Shown one piece after another: positions 4,980 to 56,049 of a DNA stretch of 64,000 nt. The position numbers and the translations under genes were made by a program. Source of the stretch: a virus (lineage: Duplodnaviria; Caudoviricetes); IMG/VR virus record IMGVR_UViG_3300028805_000078, positions 1 to 64,000 of that record; one strand, 5' to 3'. The stretch's first letter is position 1. Every line of letters begins with the position of its first letter. Under the pieces are notes generated by a model that made no database searches, had not been told where the DNA came from, and saw nothing but the letters and a program-made list of their open reading frames with translations.

Positions 4980-4995
4980 CTTCTTTCGATGTAAA

Positions 4996-21763: not shown

Positions 21764-24271
21764 TTACCAGGGCATTTCCTCATCTTCGTCGTCGTCGTCC
21801 TCGCAATCGTCAAGGTCATCAAGGTCGATAACGGCGCTGAGTGCCAGAGAGCCAAAGCGCTCGCTGAGCGCGTCGACGATGTAATCATTCAGACAATCCC
21901 AGAGGACACGCTTGTAAGTTTCAAGCGCCGGCCCTTCGTTCATCGTGTAGATGTAATATACAATCAGGTTGTAGACATGCTGCACGGTGCAGCCGTACTT
22001 TTCGGCGTAAAGTGCCATCAGCTTTTCGATCATCTGCTTTCTCAGATCGATAATCGTAGTGTATTCGAGATTGCGGCTCGCAGCCATCTCGCGGAGCTCG
22101 TCACTCGTGGCAAACACCAGCTGATCAAACTGACCGCCGTTTACGTACTTCGTGTTGCCGCTTTCGTCCTTTACGATCTTGCCGTTCTCGTCGCGGAGAG
22201 GTTCGCTGCGTTTGAACACCTTTGTGTTCTGTACGGACGGGAGCTGAGCGTCATACATCAGGTTCTCCCAGAAGAATTCTCCGTTGATTTTGGCACCAAA
22301 TTCAGCCATCTTCTTGGTATGTTCGTTGATGAAGATTGAGTACTGTTCAAGCGGGTGATTCGCCTTTTGCTCATACTTGGTTTCATCAACCACGTCCTTT
22401 ACGGGCTTGCCAATGTTCTTTGCAATTTTGGCAAACTTGATAAAGGTGGGCATCTTCTTGGTCATCTTCTTGACAGCTTTGGGCATAGGCAGATCGGTAT
22501 CGCCGTGCTTTTCAATGTCTACGGTGATTTCTACCTTTTTCTGCCAATATTCCACGCAAGCCTTTGCATCCGCAACGCGGGCTTCGTCTCCGTCAACGTA
22601 AGCGTCGTACAGATCGGAGTAAGCACAACTCAGCTTGTTGCTGACTGAGCCAATCTGAGAAGGTTTTATGAGGTTTGTAAAGTAAGCCATCCTTATATTC
22701 TTCGCCGTTGTCTTGTCGAAGGTGACCTTCTTTGCGTGTCCCGCAGGGGTGTTGGGCATTTGGGTGGGATTACCCATCTCATCGAGGGTTTCTGAGATGA
22801 TTTTGTGGAAATCTTCGTCCGTTACGACGAAGACTTTATCTCCGTCGTAGTCTGCTCCGCCGAGGCGACGAAGCGAATCGTCGTAGTTGTTGAGCACCAT
22901 TACGTTTTTGTCCGTAATGCCCATTTCTATGTGCTTATTGTTGAGAACAACCCAACTGGCCTCGCTGGTGTGGGGGTATCGGATCATTATCGTTTTGCCT
23001 TCGGGCAACGCTGCGCAGCAGCACTCACCTGCTTTGAGGCCGTTGCCTCCGAAAAGGTCGATTGGATCACAAGTGATTGCGTAGAATTTGCCTGCGTTTG
23101 GCAGTGCACCTCCGCGCAGCATCATCTTCTGTTTGCGATAGGCCACCTGGCCCGTCTTCTTGACGTAACCGTCAAGGGCAAGCTGCGGGTAGATCATAAC
23201 CGCTTCCCGCATCGCGGCGGGAAGAAGCTTTACAAAGTTGTTGAGGCAAGCAAGAGAGTCAAGGTACGAGCAGCCGAGCCGCTTGAACTTCTCAATGTTC
23301 TCTTCAGAGAACGCGAGGGTTTGAAGCGGCTGGTAGGTCATGTGTTTCAAGCTGTGCTTGTTCATGCGGACGGCTACTGAGATACCGGCATCTTTGACAG
23401 CGGAAATCTGCTGTTCTTCGGTTTTGGCGAGGCTGATAAACTTCTCGCCAGATTCGGAGAGGAGAATCTGCGTCTCGGAGATCTTATGGATTTTGCCCCA
23501 GGGCGTCTTGTACTCGGGGTCGAATCCGAGTGCGTCAAGGAAGAGCCTTTTGTTGACGGGGATCGCCAACACCTTAGTGGGACGGAGGCTTGCTGCCTCG
23601 GACGGGAGGTTGTTGTCTCCATCGAAGACGAAGCAGGCGGAATCGGACGCGTTGTGTCCGTTGCGATACACATCCTTCATGATGTGCATCTTTTCGAAGT
23701 TGATGTTAAAGTTGGGATACACTTCCTCGATGGGCGCGGAAGTGGAGAAGAACAGACCCAACCTGGTGAAGAATTTGTTGGGTTCCATGGCAGTGCCGGA
23801 GATCGTGAAGCCGTGGCGGAAATGTTTGGAAAACATCTCCAAGTGTTCAGCTTTTACCCAAATGGACTGGGCTTTCTTCGCGCCGGAGGCGGTGGCGCAA
23901 AGAGGGAGGTAGAGATGGTTGTTCAGGGTTATGCCGTTGTGGCAGAGGTTCCACCAGCTCGTTCTGATGGATTTGTTCTCTTTGTTCTTTTCGTCCTTTT
24001 CGTTGATGACGGAATTTACAAAAATGAATTCTTCTTCGGGGTTGAAGCCCTTGCTGATGGCGTAGCGGAATGCGGCATTGCTGCCGTGCGGCTCAACGGT
24101 GGTGGTGCCGTTGATATCGTAGTTTACGATGTTGAAGATGTGCTTGGTGGCGATGTTGTTGTTGATGACTTGACAAAGAAGTGAATTAGTGGTAGAATGT
24201 GACATGGTGGTTTCCTCCTTATTGATGTTGTTGTTGATGATGGTGGTGTTGGTAGCATTAAGATTCTTCAT
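21764..24271 (-). CDS. second single-subunit two-barrel RNA polymerase (RNAP-2)
   Basis: CATASGAK (cf. CTASAGQL), IRYPH, LGGADYDGD (DYDGD at nt 22838-22852), IGSVSN, VDIEKHG, collinear with the RNAP-1 motifs. Alternative start at 24205. Confidence 0.75.
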   Translation of the reverse strand: MKNLNATNTTIINNNINKEETTMSHSTTNSLLCQVINNNIATKHIFNIVNYDINGTTTVEPHGSNAAFRYAISKGFNPEEEFIFVNSVINEKDEKNKENKSIRTSWWNLCHNGITLNNHLYLPLCATASGAKKAQSIWVKAEHLEMFSKHFRHGFTISGTAMEPNKFFTRLGLFFSTSAPIEEVYPNFNINFEKMHIMKDVYRNGHNASDSACFVFDGDNNLPSEAASLRPTKVLAIPVNKRLFLDALGFDPEYKTPWGKIHKISETQILLSESGEKFISLAKTEEQQISAVKDAGISVAVRMNKHSLKHMTYQPLQTLAFSEENIEKFKRLGCSYLDSLACLNNFVKLLPAAMREAVMIYPQLALDGYVKKTGQVAYRKQKMMLRGGALPNAGKFYAITCDPIDLFGGNGLKAGECCCAALPEGKTIMIRYPHTSEASWVVLNNKHIEMGITDKNVMVLNNYDDSLRRLGGADYDGDKVFVVTDEDFHKIISETLDEMGNPTQMPNTPAGHAKKVTFDKTTAKNIRMAYFTNLIKPSQIGSVSNKLSCAYSDLYDAYVDGDEARVADAKACVEYWQKKVEITVDIEKHGDTDLPMPKAVKKMTKKMPTFIKFAKIAKNIGKPVKDVVDETKYEQKANHPLEQYSIFINEHTKKMAEFGAKINGEFFWENLMYDAQLPSVQNTKVFKRSEPLRDENGKIVKDESGNTKYVNGGQFDQLVFATSDELREMAASRNLEYTTIIDLRKQMIEKLMALYAEKYGCTVQHVYNLIVYYIYTMNEGPALETYKRVLWDCLNDYIVDALSERFGSLALSAVIDLDDLDDCEDDDDEDEEMPW

Positions 24272-24831: not shown

Positions 24832-24861
24832 ATGTAATCATTCACTAATAACCTATAAGGG
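24832..24861 (+). promoter_or_regulatory. putative phage RNAP promoter (30-bp motif) upstream of the packaging genes
   Basis: Identical to 24673-24702. Confidence 0.75.
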
Positions 24862-24878
24862 GAGAAAGAAGAGGCCGA

Positions 24879-39597: not shown

Positions 39598-42500
39598 ATG
39601 GCCGATAACATTACAATGAATTTTGAATTGACCGGCGTTACTAAAGCTATTAGCGATGTAGAGAAATTAGTTCAGGTATCTGGAGAATTAGCTGCTCCAA
39701 TGAGAGAAGCAAAGACTGCAATAGGCGGCGTAAGTGAAGAGATTAGTGCAATAAAAGAGGGATTTGATTTAAGTTCTTTGAGTTCTGGCGCTGCCAGTAT
39801 GCCAGATATGTTGCAAAACTCTATTAACGCTATGGCTCAAGCGTTATCTCAGAGTGCTAAACAAATGCAGCAAGCTATGAAAGTATCCGGAGGGCAATTA
39901 ACCGAACAGCTCCAAATCGCGCAAACATATCTTGCTGTAAATTCAAGAATTTTAAATAACAATATTCAGACTGCCCGTGCTTTATTGCATGATGTTTCGC
40001 CTACACAAAGGAGCGCCTTTAACAGTTCTTATACAACAGCGGCACAAGATGCGGCAAATGTCTTCAGGAATTTCGCAAACACTAACGGTAGCGCTATGTC
40101 TGATAGATCTTTGGAATTGATGCTGCGAAATAATAAAATCGTATCTTCTGGTGTTTCGAGGATGGCGAAAAATACCGGGGCAAAAGAAGATTTGATTTAT
40201 AAAAGTTTGGTTCAAACTGCTGCAGCGCCTTTTATGCGTCGGGAAGTAATTAAAGACATCCAAAGATTAAGCGGTGGCCTTATTGATCCTACAAAAATAC
40301 AGGCACCAAAAGGAAACTTTTATAGCAGGTTGCCGGAACAGTTCCGAGGTTTATCTACCGTTATTACTCCTTCAACTGAAGCGGACATTTCAAAGTTTGT
40401 TCGTGGTAACGGTATCAAAGCATATAAAACTATCGAAGGCAATAAGCTTTACAATGAATTGTTAAATGAGATAACCGGCAATGCCCATCGAAAAGGAAAC
40501 ATAACGCTTGAACGAGCGTTGAATGCAGCCGGAATCCAGACGCGTTTTAAAGGCGGTTCTCAAGTTGGTTTGCCAACACGAATCGACGAAAGAACGTTGG
40601 CTTATGTTGGTGGCTTTTTGCATAGGTCATTGAATAATTATCTCGAAGGAGCTCCTTCGTATCTTGCTAACATGTCGCATTTATCCGACGATGATGCTGA
40701 ACGTCTTGGTGCGAAGAACGGAACTGTTGCAAGAGAAGTTGATTCCGCCTTTAGGATTCTTGCTAAAGCGGGTGTAAAGGATCTGTTGTACACGCCGAAC
40801 GGTGCGAGGCTGCCAAGCGTTGGAAATCCTAAGAATATAAAGTACATTTACAGCAAGCATTTGGCGCCACAAGGGATAAGACCTGATGAATTTGTTATAC
40901 CTTCAGTTACATATGCAGATTTTGGTAAAGGTGTTTTGCCTACAGCAAGAGACGGATTGATTCGGTATAGTGATAGTACGAATGGCAAGACTACGAATAA
41001 AATGATTTCCAGAAACATTCTGACGGATTTGCTTGGCATGCAAGGTAATCTCACATATGGCAATGGCAGTAAAACTAATATGGGTATTCCAAAGTTAATT
41101 TACGTAGACTTTGGTGAAGATGCTTATGCGAAAAAAGATAATGGTGAATTGGATTTTGATGAAACAGGAAACGTTAAATATAATGATGCTACGAAGAAAA
41201 TAATAACTGACATGTTTGATAAATCTAAACATAGTAAAACTATAAGAGGTTCGAAATATAGTTACTCTGTTATAAAGGGTGGACCGAACGGAGACACGAA
41301 TTATGTTCCTATTTCTACTAAACATGGTTCCGTAATCTTGGCTGCTGAGGGCGATTACGACGATCCTTATTCTTATGTTAGTATGTCAAAACGCAGTCTT
41401 GATACATTTGGCGTAAATGTTTTTGACGCATTTGAAAATATGGAAGAAGTAGTAGGTACGAACAAACAGCGTGCTAAAAAGATGGACACGAGAAATAGGT
41501 CTATTACTCCCTCTATTCCTTTTGCAGAAATGCAAGGATGGAGTATTCCTGGCCGTTCGAAGACTGCAATTTTGTCAATGAAAGACTTGTTTAAACTAAA
41601 GGATGGCGATAGTGATGCTGTAGGTATTGAAGGTACGGGCATCATATCTCCTGGTTATATTCCGGATGCTGCAGTTATTAGAATGCCGGGCGTTAAAGGA
41701 TCGTTGTTGCCTGTAAATCTAAAAAATATGGTGCAAAAAGTTTATGGAAATGTTGAAAGCCTATATGCACCAACTGTTACAGCTTCTGACGACATGAAGA
41801 AAGCATGGCATACAGGTGGCATTGATGCGGTTGTTAAACAATTTGGAGATAGTGTACTGTCTAATGGTCAATTTGTTGATGTTCTTAAGATGGATATGTT
41901 GTTGAGCGATGACTTGCTTAAGAGTTCTTTTTATACCAAAGGAATAAAAGATGGTGCAACGCATGAACAATTAGTTGATAGATTTTATAAAGTACTTGAG
42001 TTTATGGATTTATCTGGCAAAAACAATCCGCTTCAAGGAATAAGAGCTGTGCAGACTGCTGCAGGTTTTCAATCTCAGAAAGATGTGCTCAGTAATCAGG
42101 TTGCGCAGTATCTTAATATGGACTTTGATACTGCGAGCATGAACCAAAGCAGGTGGACCGAACATATTAACAAATTGAAATATAATGATCAATATGCATA
42201 CGATCAACTATTTAAACACGAGATAGACAAACAAGAAGATGTAATGGCGGCTATGCTCAATCCGGATAGTCAGATAGCAAGGAAAAGAAGAGAAGCTATT
42301 GCAAAAGCAGAAGAAGACAGGATGTACGGACGGCTATTTGGTGAGAACGAATTTATGATGGGCATGGCGGCTTTGAATCCGTTTGATTTTGTTAAAGTGT
42401 TGGCAGAAAGAAACGGCAAAGGGCAAAAGGGGTTAAATGTTGTCAATAAAGAATGGTTTGATAAACTGGGTCTGACTGGTAAAGGTGGAAAAGCTGGTAT

Positions 42501-45500
42501 TGCTGCTGCATTAGGCGGTTTCGCATTGGCATCCAATATTGCTGGTCTTCGATTTCCTAATAACTTCGGTGAGCAATTTCCTTTATTGAACAATAAAGAG
42601 TATATTGATTCTTTGAAAGAATTTGGAATGTCTCCGAATGCAATCTATATGAATGCTGCAACGTTGCGTAAAATGGGCACCGGAGATTTCGACGGAGATA
42701 CAGTACAGCTGATTAAAGGAAAATATGCGGATATTATAAGGCAGACTTTTGAAAATAATAAAGACCTTATAAAATGGGATGAATACGGCACAAGAATCGG
42801 AAGATTGGAAGAACCTAAAGATGTAGAAGAGAATAGGCCAGTTAATCCTGAAGATTGGGCTCAATATCTTTATCGACAGGCAGCGGCGAGGTTCAGGCTT
42901 GGACGAATCAGTAACGCTTCGGGCGCGATAGGACAGGTTTCGTCTAATGATGTACTTAGATCACTATATGCCAAAGGTGCGCTTGATTTGGCTGATCAAT
43001 ACGATATTGATACTACGTGGATTAAAACTGGTGTAGCTGCAAACTGGAGCAAAAATGCAAACAAAGTTAAACAGTATTTAGGCACTCCGTTCTCCTCTGT
43101 ATTTAAAGATATGATTGGCGCTGTTGCCTCTGGCGATTATTCGAAGTTCGGTGATCTATCAAAGGTAAATATGCCTAGTATATATAATGCATCGTCTATA
43201 GCGTTGATGGAAGAACTGACGAGATCACCGTTAAGTTCAAACGCCGTAGACCAATTGCTGAAAGCTCAGGACAGTATTCAGAACCTGTTAACGCCTGAAC
43301 AAATGAAACAAGGGCATGGTACTGCGTTTGAAAGAGCTCGCACCGAATACTTTAGGGCAAGAAATAAACGAATCGCAAACGCTATAACCGGCCGCGGCTT
43401 TATACCATCGCAAGAAGACGATGATGCACTCGAAGCTTTGTATGCCAGTTATCGTGCCAGCGCTTATGAAACATTCAGAAATTCCAAGAGTTTAGGAATA
43501 ACACAAGATGAAAAAGATAGAATAGGGCGAGAATTGAGAATACAGGAAGAAATACATAATGCATATAAAACATTTGGTTTAAGTCATGAAAACGTCGAAA
43601 AAGGCTTGGGGTATTCTGGATATGTTAAAAATAATGCTGGTAATTATGTTGCCAATAATGCATATACGCAAGGTCAGTTAGATGCAAATCCAGATCTCGA
43701 TAAAGTTAATTATGGTACAGCATTAACGATGGGCGGAACTTTGGCTGAAGCCGGAATACAAAGCACAGTACGCGAAAGACAGGAAGCTGAAGCCGCGCAG
43801 TATGCGAGAGATACATTGTTTGGAACTAATCCTCGAAGATGGTCTATATCTAATCTTAGATTATACAGAAGAAATGCAATAGACTGGTACAACCATACGG
43901 TTAATGATGCCGATATAGGCAATCAAGGCTTCGATCCTTTTGATACGGCGCTTGGTTCAGCCGTTCATAGTAGACTTGAAAGTATTATTAATGCGCGGTT
44001 GCAAAAAGATCTTGCATTGTCGGAGCCTGAGATATTAAAAGGCGTTGAAAGAAAAGAGCGTAAAGATAATGGAACAGTGGAAAACAATTTAATACCTCTT
44101 TTAAAAGAAGCTGGATTAAAGAATTATTTTAATGAAAATGGAGAATTGGATTTTCAGTTCCATGTAGATGATGCAGCTAAGCTAAATAAAGCTATTGAGT
44201 TTGTTAAACTTGCAAGTTCTGCGGACTTTTTGAAAGATGAAGATATTGTTGCCAGTGAATTTAAAACAACATTAGATTTAGGCCAATATAAACATAGTGC
44301 ACGCAAAGGTCAGGATATTGCAACTATAGGTTATGCTGATTTAGTCACATATCGTCATGATAAAAATCATCCTGAAAACAGCGGTTTCATTATTAATGAA
44401 TTTAAATCACATGAAGCAAACGATGACGGCCGCGAACAAACTGGTGTATATGGATTAAGTATTGAGAAATTAATCCAAGCCGGAATGATTAATGTAGATA
44501 AGCTGCGTGCAAGATATGGTGATAGTTTTAACCCAAGAGTTGTAGGCATCAGAACTTTTGGCTACTTAGATGAAAATGGTGCGCCGATGATTATTCCATT
44601 TGGCGAAGGAACTGAACAGAGACAAAAAGCTCAGGAACAAATGGAAGCTTTTGGTAAAGATGTTTCTAAAATTGAAGAAATGGCATTCAGCAAAGAAGGT
44701 CTTCGAGCCGCTATAATGGCAGGAAGGCAAGACATTGTTGATGACGTATTTTCATTTGTGCCAAAAGTATATAAAGATCAACTAGAAGCAGAGATTGGTT
44801 CGGACAACAGCCGCGAAAGTCTGCATAAAGCACGAGGCGCATTATTAAGTGATGAGACACGAAAGCAAGATGCGAGAACAATAGCTGAAGCATTTTCTTT
44901 GAGAAAAGACGTAGATACATATATCGATCAGCTTGACAGTATGTATTATGAGCTGAATCGAGAAGGTATCGATGCCCCGAAAGTAAAAGATAAATGGGGT
45001 TTGAAATGGTCGCAGATAAACAGTTCTTATGATAATAAACTGCAGGAATTTATAAATAGAGGTTTGACTTCAGAATCAGAGGAAATAGTTTCGATTAAAC
45101 GTGCACGTGATAGAAATATAACAGCCTATAATAGTAAATTACTTGAGATGGCTCCAAAGGATTTGTCTGATTTAAAGGACCGGTTGAATGATTCTGTTTC
45201 GAATATAGGAAAGAGTAGGTTTGTTTCAGAGAATGAAAAATATAAAGAAAAGTTGAATCTGATGATTGAAGAACAATCTTCTGCTTTGAATCAACTTGAA
45301 AAGAATAAAGACCAATACGCTGGAAATGAAGATGTTTACGAAAGCTCTTTGGCAAGAGCTCGTGCCAATTTAGAGGAAGTAAAACAATTAAGAGATAGCT
45401 TGGTTGAAAACTCTGATATACATTTAAAGATTAATCTCGAAGGCGACGCATTGCGCGATTTAAAACAGGCTCAATCGATATTACAGCAATTTGGATTTAA

Positions 45501-48500
45501 TGCGGATAATGAAGGTTATGCAAAAGAATTAGCAATGCACAATCTAAAGAACACGCAAATTTCAATTCTTGAATCGTTGGGCGCAAAAACAGTTGACGAA
45601 CAAGCCAATCTTTTAAAGAACATAAAAACAAATCCAGATGCATACAAAGATCAATTATCTCCTGATTTGTTGAAAGTATTGAATCTTGAAGAATATGATT
45701 ACGATAGATATATAGAGTTCCAGAAACAACGAAAAGAATTGCAAGATAGATATAATAGAGGAATTAATGAGGATCGTCAAAGATATTTTGAAGAAGATTT
45801 GATGCACAAAGCAAATAGTATCAACGTTAGTTCAGGAACAATAGATCAATGGCAAATTAGTTCTTCGCGTTTGAATGATAAATATAATTCTACAAGAAAA
45901 CTATATGAACAAGTAAATGGACTGTATTCTCAAAGAACGGATTTAATGCCGGGTGACGTAGAGTATTTAAATAATTTAAGAGACTCTGTTGCTGAATATG
46001 AGAGACAGTTGTCTGTAATGCAAGATGCTATTGAACAAGCTCAGGAGAATCGCGATTGGTATAAAAAGAATATAACGGACAGGCAAGATGTTCAAAGGAT
46101 AGCTGATATTAATCGTAAGTATGAAAAACAGATATCTCAAAGAAATCAACCTCGGTTTGGTAATGGTTTACTTGGTTCATTCGAAAAAAGATTATACGCT
46201 ATGCGCGCCGAAAGAGACGACAGAGAATATGCAATTAGCCAATTAACAGAACAGCGCATGCAACAACAAGCTATTGCAGACAGATATACAGAGCTGAAAG
46301 GCAAAAATGGTTATAAATTTTCAAATGAAGATCAGGATAAACTTGATGCCGCCAGCAGAAGTATAAATGAACTGAATGCTCAAATCGCCGGTGAACAGAG
46401 CGCTTTAGAGGGAATTAGTGGTGCCTCCGGTGTCGCAAAGGCTGCGATGGGCGCACTCGGCGATGCTTTCTCCCGTCTATCGTCTATGTTTGGCCGTCGT
46501 ATCTTTATGAAACTTCTCTCTGAAGTAACCCAGTTCATGAAGCAGTATGATACGGCTATGACAAATGTACGGATGATCACGATGAAGACAAGCGAAGAGA
46601 TGGATCAGGTCGGGGCAAGCAACTTCGTTACTGCGCGTAGGCTGAAAACTGATGTTGTAACGGTTGCCGAAGTTAAAGCTGGTCTTTATCGCCAGGGTCT
46701 CTCCGATGAGGAGGTTGAAGACAGAACAGATCAGGTAATCAAGTTTGCGAAGGTTGCTGGCATCAAGACGGAAACTGCGAGTAAGATTATGACTACTGCG
46801 CTTAAGAACGGGCTCGTCGAATCTGCACAGGAAGCAATGGACGTTCTTGCTGCATTGGGTGACAGCGCGGCTACGACTGCTGACGAAATCCAGAAGGCGC
46901 TTCAGAAGGTTGCGGCTACGGCGCACAGCACTGGTATGGAGTATAACGAACTCACCGCGCTTCTGACGGTCGCGCTTGATAAGACGCAGCTCAGCGGCAA
47001 CGTAATCGGTACAGCGATGAACACAATCATGACCCGTATGCGCAGGGTTAATGAAACAGATTATGTGAAAGCAAGCAACGGTGAGATCACTACAATCAAC
47101 GATGTAGACAGAGCGCTCAGCAGGGTCGGAGTAAGTATCCGTGAAAACGGTAAAATGAAGGATACTGTTGAAATCCTTAGGGATCTTAGCAAAGTCTGGG
47201 GTACTATCGATAACGATATGACAAAACAGAATATCGTGTATGCGATGGCCGGTCGAGGAGCGGCCGCTACAAATACGTTGTATTCCGTACTTGAAGCATT
47301 AGGTGAAGATGGCGGAGAAGCATATGAGAAAGCATTGCAAACTGCGATGAGTGCAAATGGAACTGTTGATGAGAAGTATACTGCATATCTTGACAGTTAC
47401 AACGCATCGCTGCAGGAGCTGAATACGAGTATCGATACTCTTGGAAATACGATTATATCGAGTGGCATTGCACAATTCTTTGTTGATTTTGCAACAGATG
47501 TTGCCTCACTTCCCGGCTTAATTGCTATTGCATTACCGGCAATTACAAAGATGATTACTGGAATAACTGTTGCCACCGGTGTAATGAAGACATCGACTGC
47601 AGGTATAATTGGTTTTGGAGTTGGAGCGGTGGCCGCGGCTGGGTTTGGTATCTACAAATTAATTGCTGATGCACGAAAAAGAAGAGAAGAGCAAAATCTT
47701 AGAAACGAAGATTTGAGCAATATTCTTAATACAAACGAACAACAGAATTTGCAAAAACAAAAAAGCAAAATCGAATCATATTACGATACAATTGAATCGT
47801 TCTACGATAAGTATGGAAACAGTGCAAACATTACGGAGGTTGCTGGGCAAAAAGAAGTAGAAGAATTTGAATCTGCCGTAAGTAATTTGAGCACTACTCT
47901 TGGGACTAAATTTAAAACTAATATAGCCGATGCTTTATCGGATATGGGTAAGTTCAAAGATTTAATTGAAGAAATAACAAAAGAAGTAAATGATGAAAAA
48001 GCTAAAATTTCAAAAGAACAAGTAACGTTAGCTGCGCAAGGTAATGTGTCTTTTGGCAGAAATGTTTCTGCATGGGGTGGTTTATCTAACATAGGTACGC
48101 TTGCTCCTGGGTATGATATGTTAGATGCTATTTATATGCAATCGTTAGTTGACGCTGGTTTGATAAATGGTTATACTGTCAAAGGAGAATTAATAAACGG
48201 AAGATCTTTTGGCTTAGAAGATACACGAGGAAACACTAAAACAGTTTGGGGACCACATGCAATAAATGAAATTAGATATGTTGATGAATTAGTTGGTCAA
48301 TTGTACAATGGCGCTAATCAAATTGGTGATGCTCAGAATGTATTAAGGGCGAATTTAAAGAATCAAATTGTTGAATATAATGATAAATATGATTTAGGGT
48401 ATAATGAGATAGAGAATTTTACCGATGTTCAAATTGAAGAAGCTTTAAAGACTATAGCTGCATATTCCTATCTCGAAAATTTGATATCAAAAAGTGATGA

Positions 48501-51500
48501 AATAAAAACATATCTATCAGACAATGATTTAGATCAAAATAGTGTTATTAGAAACTTTATGGCAAGTCAGGGAGAAAATGTAATAGCGAATCTTTTCTCT
48601 GAAACTACTACTGGGAGTATTAATGATGCGTTTGCTGCGCATATAATTAATAAAGAAAACGAAAAACAATTGCTATTGAGCGATAATACTTCTCCTGTAT
48701 ATTTGCAGCTTAAAAATGGCGCATTTGGAACAGAAGGCGTATATCAGGAAATAGCAAACGGAGATCATTTTGCAAAAGCGACAGAAGCATATGCGTATTT
48801 AAACGATGAATCAAATAGAGATAGAATTAGAAAAAATTATCCTGATCTATATAAAGAGTTGTATGATGAAAATGGTAAAGTCAGGTCCGGTGCGTTGTCG
48901 CATTTTACATATCAAAGCGGAAATCGAGTGTATGGATTTGGTACACCAGACTTTATTGATAGCGGATATTATTATGGAAAAAATAGTAATTTTGCAGGAA
49001 GTAAAGCGCTATTATTGAATTCGCTTCCCGGAGTATCTAATTTCGCACAACTTGAAGCCAACATGAGTGCATCTGGTGAATGGGATTACGTACAATCTTA
49101 TTTAGATTCTTTGGCTGGAACAGATAAAGGTGCTCAGCTTCAACGGCTAAAAGATACAAACGATATTGAAGGTTTCCGGAATTTCTTAATTACCGAACTA
49201 CAAAGTGGTTCTTTTGAAGAGATTAATAAGCTTTATGCCAATGCTCAGAAACAACGTAAGTATGCTGACGTGTTTTACAAGATGTATGAGCAAGGTCAGC
49301 TAAGTGGTGAAAACGTCAGCGAGCTCGGGAGTTTTGTTGGATACGACGTCAGTGGTTTGGCAGATGAAGATCTTAAAGCTCTGGCAAGACAGGCGTATCA
49401 ACAGGTCACGATGACTTATACTGATATCGGTATGCAGTATGCGAGCCAGATGATGGCAAACGCAATTTCTTCGAAAGATTACGAGAACTGGGCTAAAGAA
49501 AACAAAGGCAAGACATTTGCGGATTATATTGCGGCAACGGATAACGAAGCTGTGCGGGCGATTTATGAGAGCGCGCGCGCAAATGGATATACATTAAACG
49601 TAAACGCTGAAGGCACGGCGATCACATCTACGTTTGCCGGTATTCCTAGTTACGAATATACGAATCCTTTGATCAACAGAGATTTGTATACACCTGAAGA
49701 ATCAAGGAGAGCCGCGCAGGAATATTATAATATGATCCGTGGCGGCGCGAGTCAGGAAGCTTTGAAACAGTGGCTGAATGAAGATGCACAGCGGGCTTCG
49801 ATGATCAGTTCCGATTGGAAAGATCTTGTGACATGGAGCAACTTGAGTCAGGAAGAAAAGGACACAATCTACGGAAAGAATCTTGAGAGAAGAATAGAGA
49901 TCAATTTGGTTACGAGCGGTCTTACTGAGCTTGAAACGGCAGGCGAAATACTTGCAGGCATGGCGAGCTCCGCAGAAAAGATCATGAGCCTTAACAAAGT
50001 TGAAGCGCATGATGCAATGGAGCAGCAGTATGGCGAGATCCGTTCTTGGCAGAAGGCTGAGGCTGCGTATGATAAGCTTGCGAGAGGCGAGAGGCTTACT
50101 CCTGAACAATGGGAGGAAATCGCAAGAGGATATAACATAGCGGATATATCTGAATTCCAGAAAGGCATACGTGGATTTGATGAGCTTAACGCGTACAGAA
50201 ATGAGAAGAACCGGCAGATAGGAAACGGGTTTAACACAACAATCGAAGAGATGATAAAAGCAGGAAACAAAAGTAAAATTGCACAACCTGATCTTGAAAA
50301 TACAATTGATGAAACTCAAAACAATCTTGAAACAATTAATGAATCCGCAAATGTTGCGTTTAGCGAATATGATGAACTTATTACCCAATATCAAAAGAGT
50401 TTTGAACAAGAAAATGATCAACTTCAAGAGACAAATGAACAAATTAATAAAATATCAAATAAAATAAAGACACAGATAACAGATAAATTAAATAGTAAAA
50501 TTAGTGAATATAAAACTCCTTTAAAAAAACTTGATTATACTGATTTGGAAATTGATCGCGAAACACTTTCTAGTAAACTTAACATTCAACGAAATACACT
50601 TCCAGAAGTAAATGGTTTAATAGCAGAAACAGAAGCGGATTTAGAAAACTCAAAAAGTGAATTAGAAGTAATGGAATCAGAGTTATCTGGTTTAAAAGAT
50701 GAGTATAAAGTAATTGATACACAGTGGAGTGAAATTAATCACATTGTTCATAATCCGAATGAAATTGAATTGTCAGATGAAGAGAAAAACGAATATTATG
50801 ATAAAAGAGTTATTGAAATTTATGCTGCCGCAAGAGAAAAACAGCATGCAAACGCAATGATGGAATGGATTGCACATAATAACAATTTACAAGATATTAT
50901 AAATTTGGTTAGAAATGACGATTTTGAGCAGCTTATAAATGATAAAAATAATAAGACCACTTATGAAAAATATATACAAACCTTTGTGAATGATTATTTA
51001 AATGCACCATATTCGTGGGAAGAATATACTGATGAACTTGAACTTGTAAATACAAAAGGAAATTGGTTAAACAGAGAACAATTGGAAGAAGTTAGAAAAG
51101 CGAGGCGAAAAGGATACTCATTTGAAGAAATATTTAAAGATATGAAAGATATAGATTTGACAAGAACAGAAGAATACAAAAAACAATTTAGTGAATATAA
51201 TGATAGAATAAATGATGTAGTATCAATTAAATCAAGCGATGTTCCAACTGCTATAAGGTATATATATGATATAATAGATGAGCCTTTGGAATCGTTAGAT
51301 ACTATATGGAGTGATGCAAGCACCGAAAGTTTACGTATTTCAACAGACGAAGGATTGAATGAGTTATATGAACAGTTGAAATCGGACAAACTATCTGCAT
51401 ATCAAACACAATTAATTGATTTATACACGCAACTAACAGCTAAAAACACAGAAATAGAAGAGAAAGAAGGACAAATAAGGGATAAAAAAAGTGAAATTCG

Positions 51501-54500
51501 TTCACAACAAACTACGTTAAATAGCTATCGGCAACGAAAATCTGATTTGGAAGAAAGTATAAGTTTGTTTATTGCTCAAATAAAAGCAATTGACGAAGCC
51601 ATCGCAGAAGGAGAAATGAAATACAATGAAGCCGAAAATGATCGTGTTAATGTATTAGAAAAACTCTATTCCGTAGCGAACGAGTGGACAATGTTAGAAG
51701 CTGCGTGGTCTGATAATTTATCGTTTAGTGATTTGCCAGAAGATTTGCAAGCGTTTTTATTAGAACAAGACGAGGTAATAGGTTTATTTGAACAAAAGGA
51801 TCTTTTATCGAGCGAAGTTTCTAAGACAACAGCTCACAGATTAAATGAGGTAAAGCAATTAAATGATGTAAGGAGAACGGGCAAGTTCTATTCATTGATA
51901 CCTAAAGAGAAAAATACAACAATAAATAAAAATGCCGCAGTAGAATCTGTATCAAATATAAATACATTTATTCCTGATTTTGTAGATGATAATGGTAGAT
52001 ATTATAAGCTTAATGAAAATGGTAGATTTTATGAGGTAAATTCTAAAGGAGAAATGCTTGAAGGACTTGTAGCTGGCAGAGGTTTAACATATGAAGAAAT
52101 GTATTCTAGACGCTCCGATATTGCAAATTACATGAAGTATCTGAACAGTCTTGGATATTATATGAATAACAAAACAGGCAGACTCGAACTCGACGAGACA
52201 GGAAGAAAGACGGCGTGGAGTATCTCCGATGCGCAAACGGCTCGTGATTATATGCAAGGCGCTTACACGTATCAGCGGAATACTCTCTCCGCTGAAAACC
52301 TGAATACTGCGTATAGGACGTTGTACGAGAAAGCGCAGAGCAAAGGTTCGTATGATGATTTTCTTAATTCGTTAAATGAAGAAGAAAGATATGCGCTTCA
52401 ACAAATTATTGATACTTCTAAAGAAGCTGACTTTTTCGAAGATATTAATGGTAACCGGCTGCTATCAAAAGATGTTATACGAAACAGAGCGTATAGTGCT
52501 GGATATGAAACAAATAACGAACGATTTGACATATCGAATGCTAAAGTTAGAGAATATATTGGACAATTGATGCGTGGCGATAAAACATGGATCGATGAAG
52601 CAGAAGCATCTGGTTATGGTGATCAATATAAGTCAGCCATGCAGAACATTCTTGGTGACACGTATGATGAACTGTATCTCGCAGCAACAACCGACAACGA
52701 GGTAAGTAAAGGTCTTCGCGATGCCGCACAAAAAGCTTACGAAGAGAACAGAATTAATTATGCGACAAGATTCGATGAATACGCGAACGAAGGCCGTGAG
52801 TTGTATTCGAATTTGACGAGTGATAGAGCTTCTGTCAGAAGAAGCGCGAGACAAGAAATGATTGGTCGCGCACAAAATATCGCGGATGCAAGATGGGCTT
52901 TTGGACAGTATGAAAGCGGAGCAATTTATGACGATACAGTTATGTCGCTTCTCAGCAATGCTACCGGATATACTGTAAAGCAGCTACGTGAAAAGTACGC
53001 AAGCGGTCAAACGAATGACATATCTGTAGCAATTGATGAAAGCTGGAACGACCTTACGGAGACACTTAAACAAGGCGTTAAGAGCATGCTCAGCACCAAA
53101 GGCATTGAACTTGGAGACGGATTTGAAAACTGGTTAGATGTTGGCGCTATAGAAGAAGTTGTCGGTCAGCTTCCTGACGAAATAAGAGATTATATTGAGA
53201 GTGTTGTCAGCCTTATCGCCGATGTGCGCGAAAGTCAGACTGGTACACTTGAAGAATCGTTTACACAAGCTACAGAGCAAAAGAATAAAGACAGACAATT
53301 TCTTTTAAATCTACGCAGTGCTGAAAATGTAAGAGATTTTGTTAATGCAAGCTCGAGATCTGAAGAAGATTGGAACCGTTTCGTGTCACAGAATCCGGAA
53401 ATTGCAGGCGCTATTCTTGGTGGAATGGATAATGAATCAATTGTAAGTTTGATTAACTCTTCTCTTTACGGCGGTTCCAATTATCAGACTGCAATGAGCC
53501 TTCTTAATACAATGATGCCTGGTATGTTCAGCGGAGAGCTTACCGCGGATAAGATGCAAGAAACTTATGACGTCATGGCTCCAGAACAAAGAGAAGTATT
53601 TGATTCGTTCATGAACAAATACTCTTCGGTAGGCACGCTGATGCAAGCTATTAAAGATCCGACAATAAGTTTCGAAGAAGCTTTAAAAGGTGTAAACGAA
53701 GAATTTAGAAACTATGAATATGTTGAGAAGTACGGAGAAGAAAGTGAAACTGTCAATAAAACTGTAAAAGACTTCACAAAAAATGCGCGCACTGCTGTAC
53801 AAGCGATTGGTTCGATGACTACGAAAATTCATTCGTTGTCTTATCAAAATAAGCAATTGAACGATTCGATGGGTAAAGCCGGCAATCAATTAACGGATGA
53901 TCAGCTTAATGTTTTGTCAGGCATATACGGTATAGATCAAAGTGTTATAAAGGGTTATGGCGCTGACATGATTGACAACCTTGTGCAAGGTGCAAAAGAA
54001 AGTCTCAATGAACAGTATGCTCACGAAATTGTTGATCCGCTTATGGAATCCGTGAAGGCAGAAGTAGAAGGACTAAGTGACAGCCAGAAAATAGAGTTCG
54101 ATCAAATGGTGCATGTCGCAATGAAAGGCGACGGCGCTGTGGATGTATCCGAATTAGCGAACATTGCACATCAACTCGGACTTGATTGTGAAGCCGCTCT
54201 TAATGCGCTCGTAGGAACTGGTAGTGCAATCGAAGCTCAATGGGGATCTGATGGCAACAAGGTATGGTATAATATTATAAAAAGCGCGCTCGGTACAGGT
54301 GGAACCAAATCCGGTGGTGGTGGAGGCGGTGGAAAATCGAAGTTCCAGAAGTTCCTCACGGAACTTAAGAACAAGATAGCTGTCAGCGACCACGAGATCA
54401 AGATGATCCAGGCGCAGGAGACGAAGTATGAGAACCGCGGAGAATACGGAAATCTGAATGCAATGATCGAGCTCGAGAACGAGGCGCAGGGGCGTTACAT

Positions 54501-56049
54501 CGATAGGATGAAAGACGCAATCGAGCAGATCAAAGAACAGATGAAGACATTGAAGCAAGGATCTGACGATTGGTACACGGCGCGTGACGCGATATTCAGT
54601 TACGAGGAAGCGATCGAACAGGCTACACAGGCTATTGAAGACAATGAAAAGAAGATGAAAGAGAATCAGCAAGCGATATATAAAGCGCACACTGACGTTG
54701 AAGATACTGTAAGAGAAGAAGCGAGAAGGCGTGAAGAAATTCGGAGAAGTATGTTGTCTGCCACGGTAAATATGGAAGATACTATACTCGACGCGATTCG
54801 TAAACGCTATACTGACGAGTGGGATCTCATTCAGCGTGATATTGACAGGAAACGTCAGGCTCTCGAAGATGAAAAGAATCTTATTTCAGAACGTCTGCAG
54901 GCGCGCAAAGACGCGGAGCAGGAAGCTGAAAAGTATGAACAGCTCGCTGAGTATCAGCGTCAGCTTGCATACATCAGTATGGATCCTACAAGAACAAAAG
55001 ATGCTGCTGAACTTCGTCAAAAGATTACAGATCTTCAGAAAGAAATTGCTTGGGATACCGCAGAGAAGGAAGCACAGGCAGCTCAGGAAGTTATAGATGA
55101 TCAGCTTGAAACATATGAACAATATTCTGCGACCGGGGAGGAACAACTTAATGCATATCTTGAGGATGCTAATAATTTTGCAGACGAAGTAGAGGAGATA
55201 CTTAAAGGTTCTTCGAAGGACATTTCTGATTGGCTTTCTGCAAACATTGAAGAATTTAAACTTAGTCTTAAAGAACAGCGTGAAAATATGATTGAAGGCT
55301 GGAAAGACATGTATAAAGAAATGTATAATATAACGGATATGTATCATGATCTTGTTGCAGAAAAACTTATTGACAAAGAAACGTTTATGAAATATATGAA
55401 ACTCAGTGATGACTATATAAATGCTACAGAAGACATGCGTAAACAAATGGAATACGAATGGGAAACGATGTATGACGATTATATCGCTGCTTTAAAGACT
55501 GGTGCAACATATTTACATCTCGATGATTGGCTTACTTTAGGCGGAGATGGAAAGAAATCAGGCGGTGGCGGAGGAAGTGACGGAAGTGGAGGAGACACTG
55601 TAACAAGCGATGTTCTCAAAACAATAATGGAAAAAGTCAAAGAATCCTTGTTTGGAGGAGGTAAGGCTAATTCGTATATTGGTGGCGGAACTAATGAGGA
55701 TAGAGCTTTTGCTAAATATGCAAGTGGTGGCCTCGTAGACTATACAGGTCCTGCATGGGTAGACGGGTCTCCCCTACGTCCTGAAGCCTTCTTAGACGCG
55801 GAAGATACTGCGTTGATGCGCGGTTTCCTCAATGCTGCAAAGTATGTGTCAGTTCGCATGAACATGCCTTCTATTGATGACAGACTGTTTGGCGGCGCAT
55901 CTAATTCGGTTGGCGATGTTTACATTACAATCAACGAAGCAGAGATTAACAGTGACCAGGATATTGACAAGCTTGCTGAACGTGTTGGTGACAGTTTTGT
56001 GAAACAACTTTCAATGCAAGGATTCCATACGAGTAATTTTAGTTTTTAA
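39598..56049 (+). CDS. giant tape measure protein (5483 aa) fused to a two-barrel RNA polymerase domain and a PD-(D/E)xK nuclease domain
   Basis: Lies between the chaperone and Dit genes. Tape-measure core near nt 46500-47460, long coiled coils and C-terminal YASGGLVDYTGPAWVDG. RNAP motifs IEGTG, IRMPGVKG, LRFP, GDFDGD (nt 42685-42699), LGRISN, KTG. Nuclease motifs at about nt 43840-44470. Confidence 0.85.
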   Translation: MADNITMNFELTGVTKAISDVEKLVQVSGELAAPMREAKTAIGGVSEEISAIKEGFDLSSLSSGAASMPDMLQNSINAMAQALSQSAKQMQQAMKVSGGQLTEQLQIAQTYLAVNSRILNNNIQTARALLHDVSPTQRSAFNSSYTTAAQDAANVFRNFANTNGSAMSDRSLELMLRNNKIVSSGVSRMAKNTGAKEDLIYKSLVQTAAAPFMRREVIKDIQRLSGGLIDPTKIQAPKGNFYSRLPEQFRGLSTVITPSTEADISKFVRGNGIKAYKTIEGNKLYNELLNEITGNAHRKGNITLERALNAAGIQTRFKGGSQVGLPTRIDERTLAYVGGFLHRSLNNYLEGAPSYLANMSHLSDDDAERLGAKNGTVAREVDSAFRILAKAGVKDLLYTPNGARLPSVGNPKNIKYIYSKHLAPQGIRPDEFVIPSVTYADFGKGVLPTARDGLIRYSDSTNGKTTNKMISRNILTDLLGMQGNLTYGNGSKTNMGIPKLIYVDFGEDAYAKKDNGELDFDETGNVKYNDATKKIITDMFDKSKHSKTIRGSKYSYSVIKGGPNGDTNYVPISTKHGSVILAAEGDYDDPYSYVSMSKRSLDTFGVNVFDAFENMEEVVGTNKQRAKKMDTRNRSITPSIPFAEMQGWSIPGRSKTAILSMKDLFKLKDGDSDAVGIEGTGIISPGYIPDAAVIRMPGVKGSLLPVNLKNMVQKVYGNVESLYAPTVTASDDMKKAWHTGGIDAVVKQFGDSVLSNGQFVDVLKMDMLLSDDLLKSSFYTKGIKDGATHEQLVDRFYKVLEFMDLSGKNNPLQGIRAVQTAAGFQSQKDVLSNQVAQYLNMDFDTASMNQSRWTEHINKLKYNDQYAYDQLFKHEIDKQEDVMAAMLNPDSQIARKRREAIAKAEEDRMYGRLFGENEFMMGMAALNPFDFVKVLAERNGKGQKGLNVVNKEWFDKLGLTGKGGKAGIAAALGGFALASNIAGLRFPNNFGEQFPLLNNKEYIDSLKEFGMSPNAIYMNAATLRKMGTGDFDGDTVQLIKGKYADIIRQTFENNKDLIKWDEYGTRIGRLEEPKDVEENRPVNPEDWAQYLYRQAAARFRLGRISNASGAIGQVSSNDVLRSLYAKGALDLADQYDIDTTWIKTGVAANWSKNANKVKQYLGTPFSSVFKDMIGAVASGDYSKFGDLSKVNMPSIYNASSIALMEELTRSPLSSNAVDQLLKAQDSIQNLLTPEQMKQGHGTAFERARTEYFRARNKRIANAITGRGFIPSQEDDDALEALYASYRASAYETFRNSKSLGITQDEKDRIGRELRIQEEIHNAYKTFGLSHENVEKGLGYSGYVKNNAGNYVANNAYTQGQLDANPDLDKVNYGTALTMGGTLAEAGIQSTVRERQEAEAAQYARDTLFGTNPRRWSISNLRLYRRNAIDWYNHTVNDADIGNQGFDPFDTALGSAVHSRLESIINARLQKDLALSEPEILKGVERKERKDNGTVENNLIPLLKEAGLKNYFNENGELDFQFHVDDAAKLNKAIEFVKLASSADFLKDEDIVASEFKTTLDLGQYKHSARKGQDIATIGYADLVTYRHDKNHPENSGFIINEFKSHEANDDGREQTGVYGLSIEKLIQAGMINVDKLRARYGDSFNPRVVGIRTFGYLDENGAPMIIPFGEGTEQRQKAQEQMEAFGKDVSKIEEMAFSKEGLRAAIMAGRQDIVDDVFSFVPKVYKDQLEAEIGSDNSRESLHKARGALLSDETRKQDARTIAEAFSLRKDVDTYIDQLDSMYYELNREGIDAPKVKDKWGLKWSQINSSYDNKLQEFINRGLTSESEEIVSIKRARDRNITAYNSKLLEMAPKDLSDLKDRLNDSVSNIGKSRFVSENEKYKEKLNLMIEEQSSALNQLEKNKDQYAGNEDVYESSLARARANLEEVKQLRDSLVENSDIHLKINLEGDALRDLKQAQSILQQFGFNADNEGYAKELAMHNLKNTQISILESLGAKTVDEQANLLKNIKTNPDAYKDQLSPDLLKVLNLEEYDYDRYIEFQKQRKELQDRYNRGINEDRQRYFEEDLMHKANSINVSSGTIDQWQISSSRLNDKYNSTRKLYEQVNGLYSQRTDLMPGDVEYLNNLRDSVAEYERQLSVMQDAIEQAQENRDWYKKNITDRQDVQRIADINRKYEKQISQRNQPRFGNGLLGSFEKRLYAMRAERDDREYAISQLTEQRMQQQAIADRYTELKGKNGYKFSNEDQDKLDAASRSINELNAQIAGEQSALEGISGASGVAKAAMGALGDAFSRLSSMFGRRIFMKLLSEVTQFMKQYDTAMTNVRMITMKTSEEMDQVGASNFVTARRLKTDVVTVAEVKAGLYRQGLSDEEVEDRTDQVIKFAKVAGIKTETASKIMTTALKNGLVESAQEAMDVLAALGDSAATTADEIQKALQKVAATAHSTGMEYNELTALLTVALDKTQLSGNVIGTAMNTIMTRMRRVNETDYVKASNGEITTINDVDRALSRVGVSIRENGKMKDTVEILRDLSKVWGTIDNDMTKQNIVYAMAGRGAAATNTLYSVLEALGEDGGEAYEKALQTAMSANGTVDEKYTAYLDSYNASLQELNTSIDTLGNTIISSGIAQFFVDFATDVASLPGLIAIALPAITKMITGITVATGVMKTSTAGIIGFGVGAVAAAGFGIYKLIADARKRREEQNLRNEDLSNILNTNEQQNLQKQKSKIESYYDTIESFYDKYGNSANITEVAGQKEVEEFESAVSNLSTTLGTKFKTNIADALSDMGKFKDLIEEITKEVNDEKAKISKEQVTLAAQGNVSFGRNVSAWGGLSNIGTLAPGYDMLDAIYMQSLVDAGLINGYTVKGELINGRSFGLEDTRGNTKTVWGPHAINEIRYVDELVGQLYNGANQIGDAQNVLRANLKNQIVEYNDKYDLGYNEIENFTDVQIEEALKTIAAYSYLENLISKSDEIKTYLSDNDLDQNSVIRNFMASQGENVIANLFSETTTGSINDAFAAHIINKENEKQLLLSDNTSPVYLQLKNGAFGTEGVYQEIANGDHFAKATEAYAYLNDESNRDRIRKNYPDLYKELYDENGKVRSGALSHFTYQSGNRVYGFGTPDFIDSGYYYGKNSNFAGSKALLLNSLPGVSNFAQLEANMSASGEWDYVQSYLDSLAGTDKGAQLQRLKDTNDIEGFRNFLITELQSGSFEEINKLYANAQKQRKYADVFYKMYEQGQLSGENVSELGSFVGYDVSGLADEDLKALARQAYQQVTMTYTDIGMQYASQMMANAISSKDYENWAKENKGKTFADYIAATDNEAVRAIYESARANGYTLNVNAEGTAITSTFAGIPSYEYTNPLINRDLYTPEESRRAAQEYYNMIRGGASQEALKQWLNEDAQRASMISSDWKDLVTWSNLSQEEKDTIYGKNLERRIEINLVTSGLTELETAGEILAGMASSAEKIMSLNKVEAHDAMEQQYGEIRSWQKAEAAYDKLARGERLTPEQWEEIARGYNIADISEFQKGIRGFDELNAYRNEKNRQIGNGFNTTIEEMIKAGNKSKIAQPDLENTIDETQNNLETINESANVAFSEYDELITQYQKSFEQENDQLQETNEQINKISNKIKTQITDKLNSKISEYKTPLKKLDYTDLEIDRETLSSKLNIQRNTLPEVNGLIAETEADLENSKSELEVMESELSGLKDEYKVIDTQWSEINHIVHNPNEIELSDEEKNEYYDKRVIEIYAAAREKQHANAMMEWIAHNNNLQDIINLVRNDDFEQLINDKNNKTTYEKYIQTFVNDYLNAPYSWEEYTDELELVNTKGNWLNREQLEEVRKARRKGYSFEEIFKDMKDIDLTRTEEYKKQFSEYNDRINDVVSIKSSDVPTAIRYIYDIIDEPLESLDTIWSDASTESLRISTDEGLNELYEQLKSDKLSAYQTQLIDLYTQLTAKNTEIEEKEGQIRDKKSEIRSQQTTLNSYRQRKSDLEESISLFIAQIKAIDEAIAEGEMKYNEAENDRVNVLEKLYSVANEWTMLEAAWSDNLSFSDLPEDLQAFLLEQDEVIGLFEQKDLLSSEVSKTTAHRLNEVKQLNDVRRTGKFYSLIPKEKNTTINKNAAVESVSNINTFIPDFVDDNGRYYKLNENGRFYEVNSKGEMLEGLVAGRGLTYEEMYSRRSDIANYMKYLNSLGYYMNNKTGRLELDETGRKTAWSISDAQTARDYMQGAYTYQRNTLSAENLNTAYRTLYEKAQSKGSYDDFLNSLNEEERYALQQIIDTSKEADFFEDINGNRLLSKDVIRNRAYSAGYETNNERFDISNAKVREYIGQLMRGDKTWIDEAEASGYGDQYKSAMQNILGDTYDELYLAATTDNEVSKGLRDAAQKAYEENRINYATRFDEYANEGRELYSNLTSDRASVRRSARQEMIGRAQNIADARWAFGQYESGAIYDDTVMSLLSNATGYTVKQLREKYASGQTNDISVAIDESWNDLTETLKQGVKSMLSTKGIELGDGFENWLDVGAIEEVVGQLPDEIRDYIESVVSLIADVRESQTGTLEESFTQATEQKNKDRQFLLNLRSAENVRDFVNASSRSEEDWNRFVSQNPEIAGAILGGMDNESIVSLINSSLYGGSNYQTAMSLLNTMMPGMFSGELTADKMQETYDVMAPEQREVFDSFMNKYSSVGTLMQAIKDPTISFEEALKGVNEEFRNYEYVEKYGEESETVNKTVKDFTKNARTAVQAIGSMTTKIHSLSYQNKQLNDSMGKAGNQLTDDQLNVLSGIYGIDQSVIKGYGADMIDNLVQGAKESLNEQYAHEIVDPLMESVKAEVEGLSDSQKIEFDQMVHVAMKGDGAVDVSELANIAHQLGLDCEAALNALVGTGSAIEAQWGSDGNKVWYNIIKSALGTGGTKSGGGGGGGKSKFQKFLTELKNKIAVSDHEIKMIQAQETKYENRGEYGNLNAMIELENEAQGRYIDRMKDAIEQIKEQMKTLKQGSDDWYTARDAIFSYEEAIEQATQAIEDNEKKMKENQQAIYKAHTDVEDTVREEARRREEIRRSMLSATVNMEDTILDAIRKRYTDEWDLIQRDIDRKRQALEDEKNLISERLQARKDAEQEAEKYEQLAEYQRQLAYISMDPTRTKDAAELRQKITDLQKEIAWDTAEKEAQAAQEVIDDQLETYEQYSATGEEQLNAYLEDANNFADEVEEILKGSSKDISDWLSANIEEFKLSLKEQRENMIEGWKDMYKEMYNITDMYHDLVAEKLIDKETFMKYMKLSDDYINATEDMRKQMEYEWETMYDDYIAALKTGATYLHLDDWLTLGGDGKKSGGGGGSDGSGGDTVTSDVLKTIMEKVKESLFGGGKANSYIGGGTNEDRAFAKYASGGLVDYTGPAWVDGSPLRPEAFLDAEDTALMRGFLNAAKYVSVRMNMPSIDDRLFGGASNSVGDVYITINEAEINSDQDIDKLAERVGDSFVKQLSMQGFHTSNFSF

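Follow-up and report, generated by a model that had tools for sequence, protein, structure and literature searches.

Why would the tail gene of a phage carry the active site of an RNA polymerase? The question is raised by the first 64 kb (the window) of IMGVR_UViG_3300028805_000078, a 116,061-bp virus record in IMG/VR with a completeness estimate of 95%. A single open reading frame (ORF) on the plus strand, 39598-56049, runs from an ATG start through 5483 aa without an internal stop and encodes a giant tape measure protein. In its amino-terminal part, at aa ~462-1212, structure prediction supports a two-barrel RNA polymerase of the YonO/QDE-1 type, complete in a single chain and with its active site intact. 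We think it likely, reasoning by analogy, that this polymerase is carried in the virion within the tape measure, is delivered with the DNA and transcribes the first phage genes. The protein is laid out as follows.

39598..56049, plus strand: giant tape measure protein gene, 5483 aa, holding all the domains listed here (single frame; Pfam, PHROGs)
39598..40980, plus strand: amino-terminal leader, aa 1-461, weakly conserved and without known family (no Pfam or PHROG match)
40981..43233, plus strand: predicted two-barrel RNA polymerase core, aa 462-1212
43234..43797, plus strand: conserved helical extension behind the polymerase core, aa 1213-1400
43831..44577, plus strand: probable PD-(D/E)xK (RecB/Cas4-like) nuclease domain, aa ~1412-1660 (motifs, ESM Atlas)
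46639..47253, plus strand: tape measure core domain PF10145, aa 2348-2552 (Pfam)
47479..47664, plus strand: two hydrophobic segments, probably membrane-spanning, aa 2628-2689 (Kyte-Doolittle scan)

Polymerase motifs and their conservation

The preliminary description of this DNA had named six polymerase motifs in the ORF, and a script located all of them at the residues given there: IEGTG (aa 677), IRMPGVKG (694), LRFP (984), DFDGD (1030), LGRISN (1101) and KTG (1143). It had also set them beside a collinear series in RNAP-1, a free polymerase encoded elsewhere in the window. This comparison holds, as BLASTP pairs CDGCG and IRAPWIKG of RNAP-1 with IEGTG and IRMPGVKG, and IGQVSN with the LGRISN block, while LRSP and DNDGD are found in the RNAP-1 family consensus. 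The end proposed for the polymerase region, 43600 (aa 1334), also lies near the end of the conserved domain at ~aa 1350-1400. Just three copies of DxDGD occur in the six-frame translation of the entire 116-kb genome, every one of them within a long ORF: that of the tape measure, 21764-24271 on the minus strand (as DYDGD) and 1017-3227 on the minus strand (as DNDGD). Judged from the sequence, the motif set is far beyond chance. The principal motifs are these.

41677..41700, plus strand: IRMPGVKG, aa 694-701, with basic R695 and K700, assigned to the second double-psi beta-barrel (DPBB-B) (conservation; YonO-ortholog alignment)
42547..42558, plus strand: LRFP, aa 984-987, RxP motif 43 residues before the metal loop (R[YFW]P conserved)
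42685..42699, plus strand: DFDGD, aa 1030-1034, catalytic metal-binding loop (DPBB-A) (motif, conservation)
42898..43032, plus strand: LGRISN (aa 1101-1106) and KTG (aa 1143-1145), in a conserved stretch of helices behind the catalytic barrel (conservation)

Conservation was read from an alignment of 33 relatives, which share 20-35% identity with the tape measure domain apart from one close relative at 59%. The three Asp residues of DxDxD are retained in every aligned relative covering the site, within a MGGGD[FVIW]D[GV]D stretch that is likewise kept. In the 33 aligned relatives there is almost no variation at KTG, in the R..KG block or at the Arg of R[YFW]P, and R695, K700 and K775 are likewise near-invariant. 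The IR.P..KG block pairs with IRAPWIKG of the YonO family in BLASTP and supplies the basic residues that mark the second barrel, where we infer that it lies. LRFP pairs with RYP of a second free polymerase, RNAP-2, and together with DFDGD it matches the published filter [RK]xPx{20,100}DxDxD (PMC10770324). The LGRISN/KTG region pairs with IGQVSN and AK[CT]G of the YonO family, spans helices at model residues 635-695 and is probably the bridge-helix/trigger region. Because the three Asp, the RxP Arg, R..KG and KTG are kept at ~30% identity, the sequences indicate that the site is under selection as a polymerase active site.

Predicted structure and affinities

AlphaFold2, run without templates on aa 450-1400 using the 33-sequence alignment, gave a confident model (mean predicted local distance difference test (pLDDT) 84.3, predicted template modelling score (pTM) 0.82). 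The model contains both barrels and the bridge-helix region of the two-barrel superfamily. Using Foldseek against the PDB, the best matches were RDR2 and QDE-1 (E 3e-8 to 1e-6), next the non-virion polymerases of Thermus phages, 8F72 and 8F5M (E 6e-4), then gp96 of Thermus phage P23-45 (8H2N/8H2M; E 0.03-0.05) and then bacterial beta'. Structure comparison placed the references in a similar order, given here with the score and the extent matched.

RDR2: 19.2 (root-mean-square deviation 4.3); 503
QDE-1: 17.7; about 520
gp62/gp64: 14.6; 440
gp96: 10.2; 389
beta'/Rpb1: about 8; catalytic barrel only

Among predicted viral structures, the top fold matches were phage 'RNA dependent RNA polymerase' models, crAss-like giant proteins and P23-45 gp64. 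In the model, the extension at aa 1213-1400 consists of long helices, for which pLDDT is ~85-90 as far as aa 1350; most rows of the fold search leave it uncovered.

The closest sequence relative of the fused domain is RNAP-2. The two family profiles align in hhalign at 96.4% (E 1.1e-9) over 381-432 columns across both barrels, and BLASTP links the fused domain to RNAP-2 at E 8e-5; the RNAP-1 family is matched less strongly (51%, E 1.5e-4). One fragmentary relative, P0065, matched Pfam RdRP at a sub-threshold E of 0.0042, and a scan of the short relatives P0068, P0086, P0090 and P0092 returned no bridging family matches. From these comparisons the fused domain is read as a remote relative of the PF05183 family, not a demonstrable member. 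The claim that the amino-terminal tape measure holds a two-barrel polymerase is supported by the AlphaFold2 model, the polymerase folds that Foldseek retrieved with it (RDR2, QDE-1, gp64 and gp96), hhalign to RNAP-2 and the conserved fusion described below.

The polymerase domain has no Pfam match at E up to 0.1, aa 1-1500 of the tape measure protein hold no family in Pfam or PHROG scans, and a tblastn search with these residues matched none of 50,697 phage records. Pfam and PHROGs are blind to polymerase domains of this kind, and because such domains are invisible to them, giant 'minor tail proteins' in gut viromes are under-annotated.

The fusion in relatives and independent assemblies

Is the join between polymerase and tape measure real? 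A word-indexed search recovered 31 relatives of 3617-4407 aa, all with PF10145 and all with an invariant GDFDGD. In an exhaustive profile search, 60 proteins turned up among 1.84 billion representatives; 19 of them are 3899-5923 aa long and carry the domain at ~435-1440, and the remainder are mostly contig-end fragments. One of the shorter proteins, P0068 (937 aa; VRRPLVKG, ADFDGD), may be an unfused member of the subfamily or a contig-end fragment. In four IMG/VR loci from other samples the domain lies inside a single frame of 3346 to >4617 aa. A single-sequence scan of viral contigs found nothing. The fusion is common to ~20 divergent giant tape measure clusters sharing 27-35% identity, in which the three Asp, the RxP and the R..KG motif are retained; this is the outcome of the search for other tape measure proteins with the domain that the preliminary description had proposed.

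An assembly artefact, in which separate polymerase and tape measure genes were joined by misassembly or a missed stop, has in its favour only that the record is a metagenome assembly. Against it stand the continuous frame in the four IMG/VR contigs and in the 19 further long representatives, and a 6.8-kb bovine-gut contig from another study that spans 41500-45333, from before the catalytic loop to past the end of the polymerase and into the domain behind it, with 148 substitutions and neither indels nor joints. Because this independent contig bridges the polymerase and the downstream sequence without indels, the join is not a misassembly, and we give the artefact practically no weight.

The tape measure and its surroundings

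The carrier is a tape measure protein by several lines of evidence. PF10145 (PhageMin_Tail) is matched by aa 2348-2552 (E 6.5e-27), to which ten tape-measure PHROGs also map. Hydrophobic, membrane-spanning segments such as the two that follow are typical of tape measure proteins. Downstream, a Sipho_tail gene (56250-57329) and then a Prophage_tail gene (57333-61304) adjoin, and on the upstream side there are terminase, portal and capsid-like genes. Core domain, hydrophobic segments and a place before the distal tail/tail-tip genes are together those of a TP901-type tape measure. In the leader, aa 1-461, the consensus across the aligned relatives is mostly undefined. Contigs from RNA libraries match parts of the gene at 100% identity, which is no evidence of transcription. 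The tail gene module also contains a second homing endonuclease gene at 36285-36893 on the plus strand (phrog_314, GIY-YIG-type relatives).

A probable nuclease follows the polymerase

Behind the helical extension, aa ~1412-1660 carry a D..(D/E)xK..QxxxY signature. Of 51 giant relatives, 36, belonging to several sub-lineages, have this signature at the corresponding place, and columns of H, E, D and K are conserved in the alignment of the segment. Its ESM Atlas features fall with phage PDDEXK_1 (PF12705) clusters (0.95; 25 of 30 matches). The segment has no Pfam match and a PDB profile search with it was empty. A jackhmmer search of aa 1400-1800 within the giant relatives recovered P0002 alone (58% identity), and BLASTP of the same residues against four related loci found nothing. 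We consider this segment a probable PD-(D/E)xK nuclease on the strength of its motifs; its fold is unconfirmed because the AlphaFold2 model, built from 4 sequences, was too poor for a fold search (pLDDT 41).

Companion free polymerases

Two further two-barrel polymerases are encoded in the window as free proteins.

21764..24271, minus strand: RNAP-2, two-barrel polymerase of 835 aa encoded as a free protein (DYDGD); its gene is the first large one in the leftward arm (Pfam)
1017..4988, minus strand: RNAP-1, YonO ortholog (DNDGD), in two coding pieces (yonO homology)

RNAP-2 matches Pfam RdRP (PF05183) at E 1.5e-14, as well as phrog_8308 and phrog_4291. RNAP-1 shares 36% identity with yonO of SPbeta over 94% of its length (E 2e-109) and matches phrog_8308 at E 7e-160. 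The two align with one another in hhalign at 100% (E 2e-44), and both types are present also in the related genomes G001-G003. RNAP-1 is split: residues 94-283 of a 1033-aa relative correspond to 4988-4431 and residues 282-1015 to 3254-1062. The 1.18-kb insert between them holds an HNH homing endonuclease (3382-4368) and is probably an intron or other mobile insert; Rfam at the gathering threshold detected no group I intron in it. Around RNAP-2, at 20001-24000, the G+C content is ~51%, compared with ~39-47% in the rest of the window, which may mean that this segment has another origin.

Because further relatives of RNAP-1 sit in Bacillus, Clostridium, Enterocloster and Thomasclavelia phages, we take a host among the Bacillota to be indicated. 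A scan of 185,579 species genomes found no prophage copies and thereby named no host. The sequencing runs that contain the sequence of this uncultured phage are sheep and cattle gut metagenomes.

A promoter-like motif

A 38-nt promoter-like motif occurs in nine copies. It consists of the core ATGTAATCATTCACTAAT, a short spacer of a few bases and then CTATAAGGGRARGAAA.

24673, 24832, 35812 and 56088, plus strand, and 15252, minus strand: copies of the 38-nt motif in the window
78401, plus strand, and 93904, 104338 and 115265, minus strand: copies of the 38-nt motif elsewhere in the genome

All nine copies are intergenic, are oriented with the adjacent genes on both arms and stand before all modules. 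From this arrangement the motif is a candidate promoter for one phage polymerase. It is absent from four related contigs. There is a loose resemblance to T7-type promoters in the CTATAAGGGA part of the motif. The divergent intergenic region between the gene arms, 24525-24878, which RNAP-2 adjoins, holds two copies of the motif together with a 12-nt tandem repeat (TTCATTTCCAAC-like) and two copies of GATGTAATCTCCGAAGGA, and may serve in regulation or as a replication origin.

Role of the fused polymerase

A tape measure protein occupies the inside of the tail tube until infection, when it is ejected into the cell envelope, and it is for this reason that we favour virion carriage and delivery of the fused polymerase. 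The polymerase would be packed in the virion inside the tape measure, in few copies per particle, and would enter the cell with the nuclease and the DNA. There it would transcribe the first-entering phage genes without the host RNA polymerase, as for P23-45 gp96, and the later classes would then fall to RNAP-2 and to RNAP-1, the YonO ortholog. Catalytic activity, DNA-dependence, virion presence, injection and the way in which the three polymerases share the work are all features that we infer. Several observations weigh against this picture. The segment between the barrels comprises ~140-200 well-folded residues, a QDE-1-like length unlike that of the flat gp96, and because it is long and well folded the fused domain may be bulkier than the gp96 polymerase. 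A search of the intergenic regions for a second class of promoter, which a virion polymerase might use, came up empty. From the PDB, a sequence-profile search started with a 5-sequence alignment returned chance matches alone (E above 1), and the domain has no direct match in either Pfam or PHROGs.

A more elaborate scenario, which we put forward tentatively and hold to be somewhat doubtful, is that a lineage of siphophages from ruminant and other guts, in possession of YonO-type polymerases beforehand, independently fused a paralog of these and a RecB-like nuclease to the front of its tape measure, and runs, with its two free polymerases, a three-polymerase cascade independent of the host RNA polymerase with its own 38-nt promoter, while the nuclease acts at entry on host or phage DNA.

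In a different account of the same protein, the polymerase is active but is not delivered by the virion; it would be cleaved off before or during tail assembly, or the long form would be minor, and it would act late in the infected cell. A polymerase with a connector of QDE-1-like length may not fit the tail lumen, proteolytic processing occurs in some tape measure proteins, and there are Gly-rich linkers in the 5483-aa protein at aa 4906-4912 and 5322-5326. These linkers are, however, distant from the polymerase, and a late polymerase on a structural protein has no obvious use beside two free ones. Furthermore, the amino-terminal position and the fusion are conserved over ~20 clusters, and in P23-45 the polymerase is found in virions as part of full-size gp96 (PMC10770324). 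For these reasons we regard late action as improbable.

Delivery could also serve another main job, such as that of a translocation motor, primer synthesis or the copying of RNA in the manner of QDE-1 and RDR2, working with the adjacent nuclease. The top structural matches are indeed eukaryotic RNA-dependent RNA polymerases, the paralog RNAP-2 matches Pfam 'RdRP', a nuclease is fused alongside and the promoter search gave no class peculiar to a virion polymerase. YonO and gp66 are nevertheless DNA-dependent polymerases. The characterised phage members of the clade, gp96, gp64 and the crAss-like gp66, act on DNA (PMC10770324). The authors of that study propose that transcription is coupled to DNA translocation, which would be in keeping with a motor, but the pulling of DNA by transcription is a variant of delivery for early transcription, not an alternative to it, and we consider a different main job unlikely. 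Finally, the domain could be an inactive relic that serves as a structural plug or tail spacer. A distant giant relative, P0063 (5145 aa), has DWDVD in place of DxDGD; its DxDxD is still intact, and elsewhere the three Asp, RxP, R..KG and KTG are retained at ~30% identity, residues that relics lose. A relic is therefore very unlikely, and early transcription by a delivered polymerase remains the reading that we prefer.

Other features of the window

Four RNA features pass the Rfam gathering score.

20985-21038, minus strand: type-P5 twister ribozyme
8477-8547, minus strand: skipping-rope RNA beside a reverse transcriptase gene
30086-30133, plus strand: DUF3800-XI RNA
29718-29790, plus strand: one tRNA

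The reverse-transcriptase-like gene, 8568-9689 on the minus strand (phrog_2825 'polymerase', phrog_1423 'Reverse transcriptase'), is bordered by long non-coding gaps at 8104-8567 and 9690-10280.

Comparison with known systems

The preliminary description had stated that no fusion of a tape measure protein to an RNA polymerase was known. This proved incorrect, as Chaban et al. (Nat Commun 2024; PMC10770324) showed that gp96 of Thermus phage P23-45 is a tape-measure-fused virion RNA polymerase, using structures (PDB 8H2M/8H2N), activity assays, virion western blots and chromatin immunoprecipitation sequencing (ChIP-seq). gp96 is a 5002-aa tape measure with an amino-terminal two-barrel polymerase and DFDGD at 779-783; its minimal active fragment comprises residues 327-1124, residues 1-326 being dispensable for activity (PMC10770324). 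It binds and transcribes the pre-early genes at one genome end, including the gene for gp64, the second, non-virion polymerase of P23-45 (PMC10770324). Its structure is flat and clamp-less, a shape proposed to permit passage through the tail, and a duplication scenario has been proposed for gp96 and gp64 (PMC10770324). The gp96 grouping includes P23-45, P74-26, G20c and TSP4.

The likeness to the gut phage is considerable. Both have a giant tape measure (5002 and 5483 aa) with a DFDGD loop, and in both the two-barrel polymerase is amino-terminal, after a leader of 330-460 aa, so that aa 1-461 here are placed like residues 1-326 of gp96. Both encode free non-virion two-barrel polymerases, one in P23-45 and two in the present phage, and in both phages the fused and free polymerases resemble old paralogs within their own lineage. 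The fused protein has the architecture of gp96 and, by analogy, probably its role too.

The differences lie in sequence and in detail. BLASTP of the whole proteins finds nothing at E up to 1. Against gp96 327-1200, hhalign gives 7.8% over 69-71 columns around RxP..DFDGD, a comparison whose sensitivity is limited by the use of gp96 as a single sequence, and against gp64 it gives 0.1%, a test weakened in the same way. A PDB profile search with the fused domain did not retrieve 8H2M/8H2N. The connector between the barrels is long and confidently folded here (model residues ~257-463), whereas that of gp96 consists of 67 disordered residues. Unlike in gp96, a Pfam scan found no metallopeptidase domain in the tape measure protein, and here a probable PD-(D/E)xK nuclease follows the polymerase. 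When the P23-45 terminase, portal, protease, capsid and several tail proteins were compared with the genome, a weak terminase match alone was found, and the habitats also differ, ruminant gut here and hot spring for P23-45. Since there is no detectable sequence link to gp96, the nearest relatives of the fused domain are the lineage's own paralogs and the phages are otherwise unrelated, the fusion probably arose within the YonO-bearing lineage from its YonO-type paralog, independently of the Thermus case and in parallel with the duplication proposed for gp96 and gp64.

Other relatives share the enzyme or the strategy in part. YonO of Bacillus phage SPbeta is a single-chain DNA-dependent two-barrel RNA polymerase that is free and non-virion, whereas the fused domain forms part of a structural protein. 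With 11-13% sequence identity to the fused domain, QDE-1 of Neurospora and RDR2 of plants are cellular RNA-silencing enzymes that copy RNA or single-stranded DNA, with no virion link. In crAss-like phi14:2, with gp66, and in coliphage N4, a polymerase likewise resides in a very large virion protein that is ejected for early transcription. These phages are, however, podoviruses in which the carrier is not a tape measure, and the N4 enzyme is T7-like and not a two-barrel polymerase.

A search of the literature found no fusion of this kind described outside Thermus, which is not proof of absence; an injected, tape-measure-fused RNA polymerase has so far been demonstrated only in one phage group, the Thermus Oshimavirus. 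The same architecture is seen here in a mesophilic gut lineage from another polymerase branch (YonO/QDE-1-like). Because the branch differs and there is no detectable homology to gp96, the sequences suggest repeated evolution of the fusion and a general use of tape measures as vehicles by which enzymes are injected. If true, enzyme delivery by the tape measure would be a recurrent, convergent strategy and not a peculiarity of Thermus phages. The gut phage would also pose a mechanical puzzle, that of an apparently non-flat ~85 kDa polymerase plus a nuclease passing in or through the tail tube, and would offer, next to P23-45, a second and independent system in which to ask whether transcription is coupled to DNA entry.

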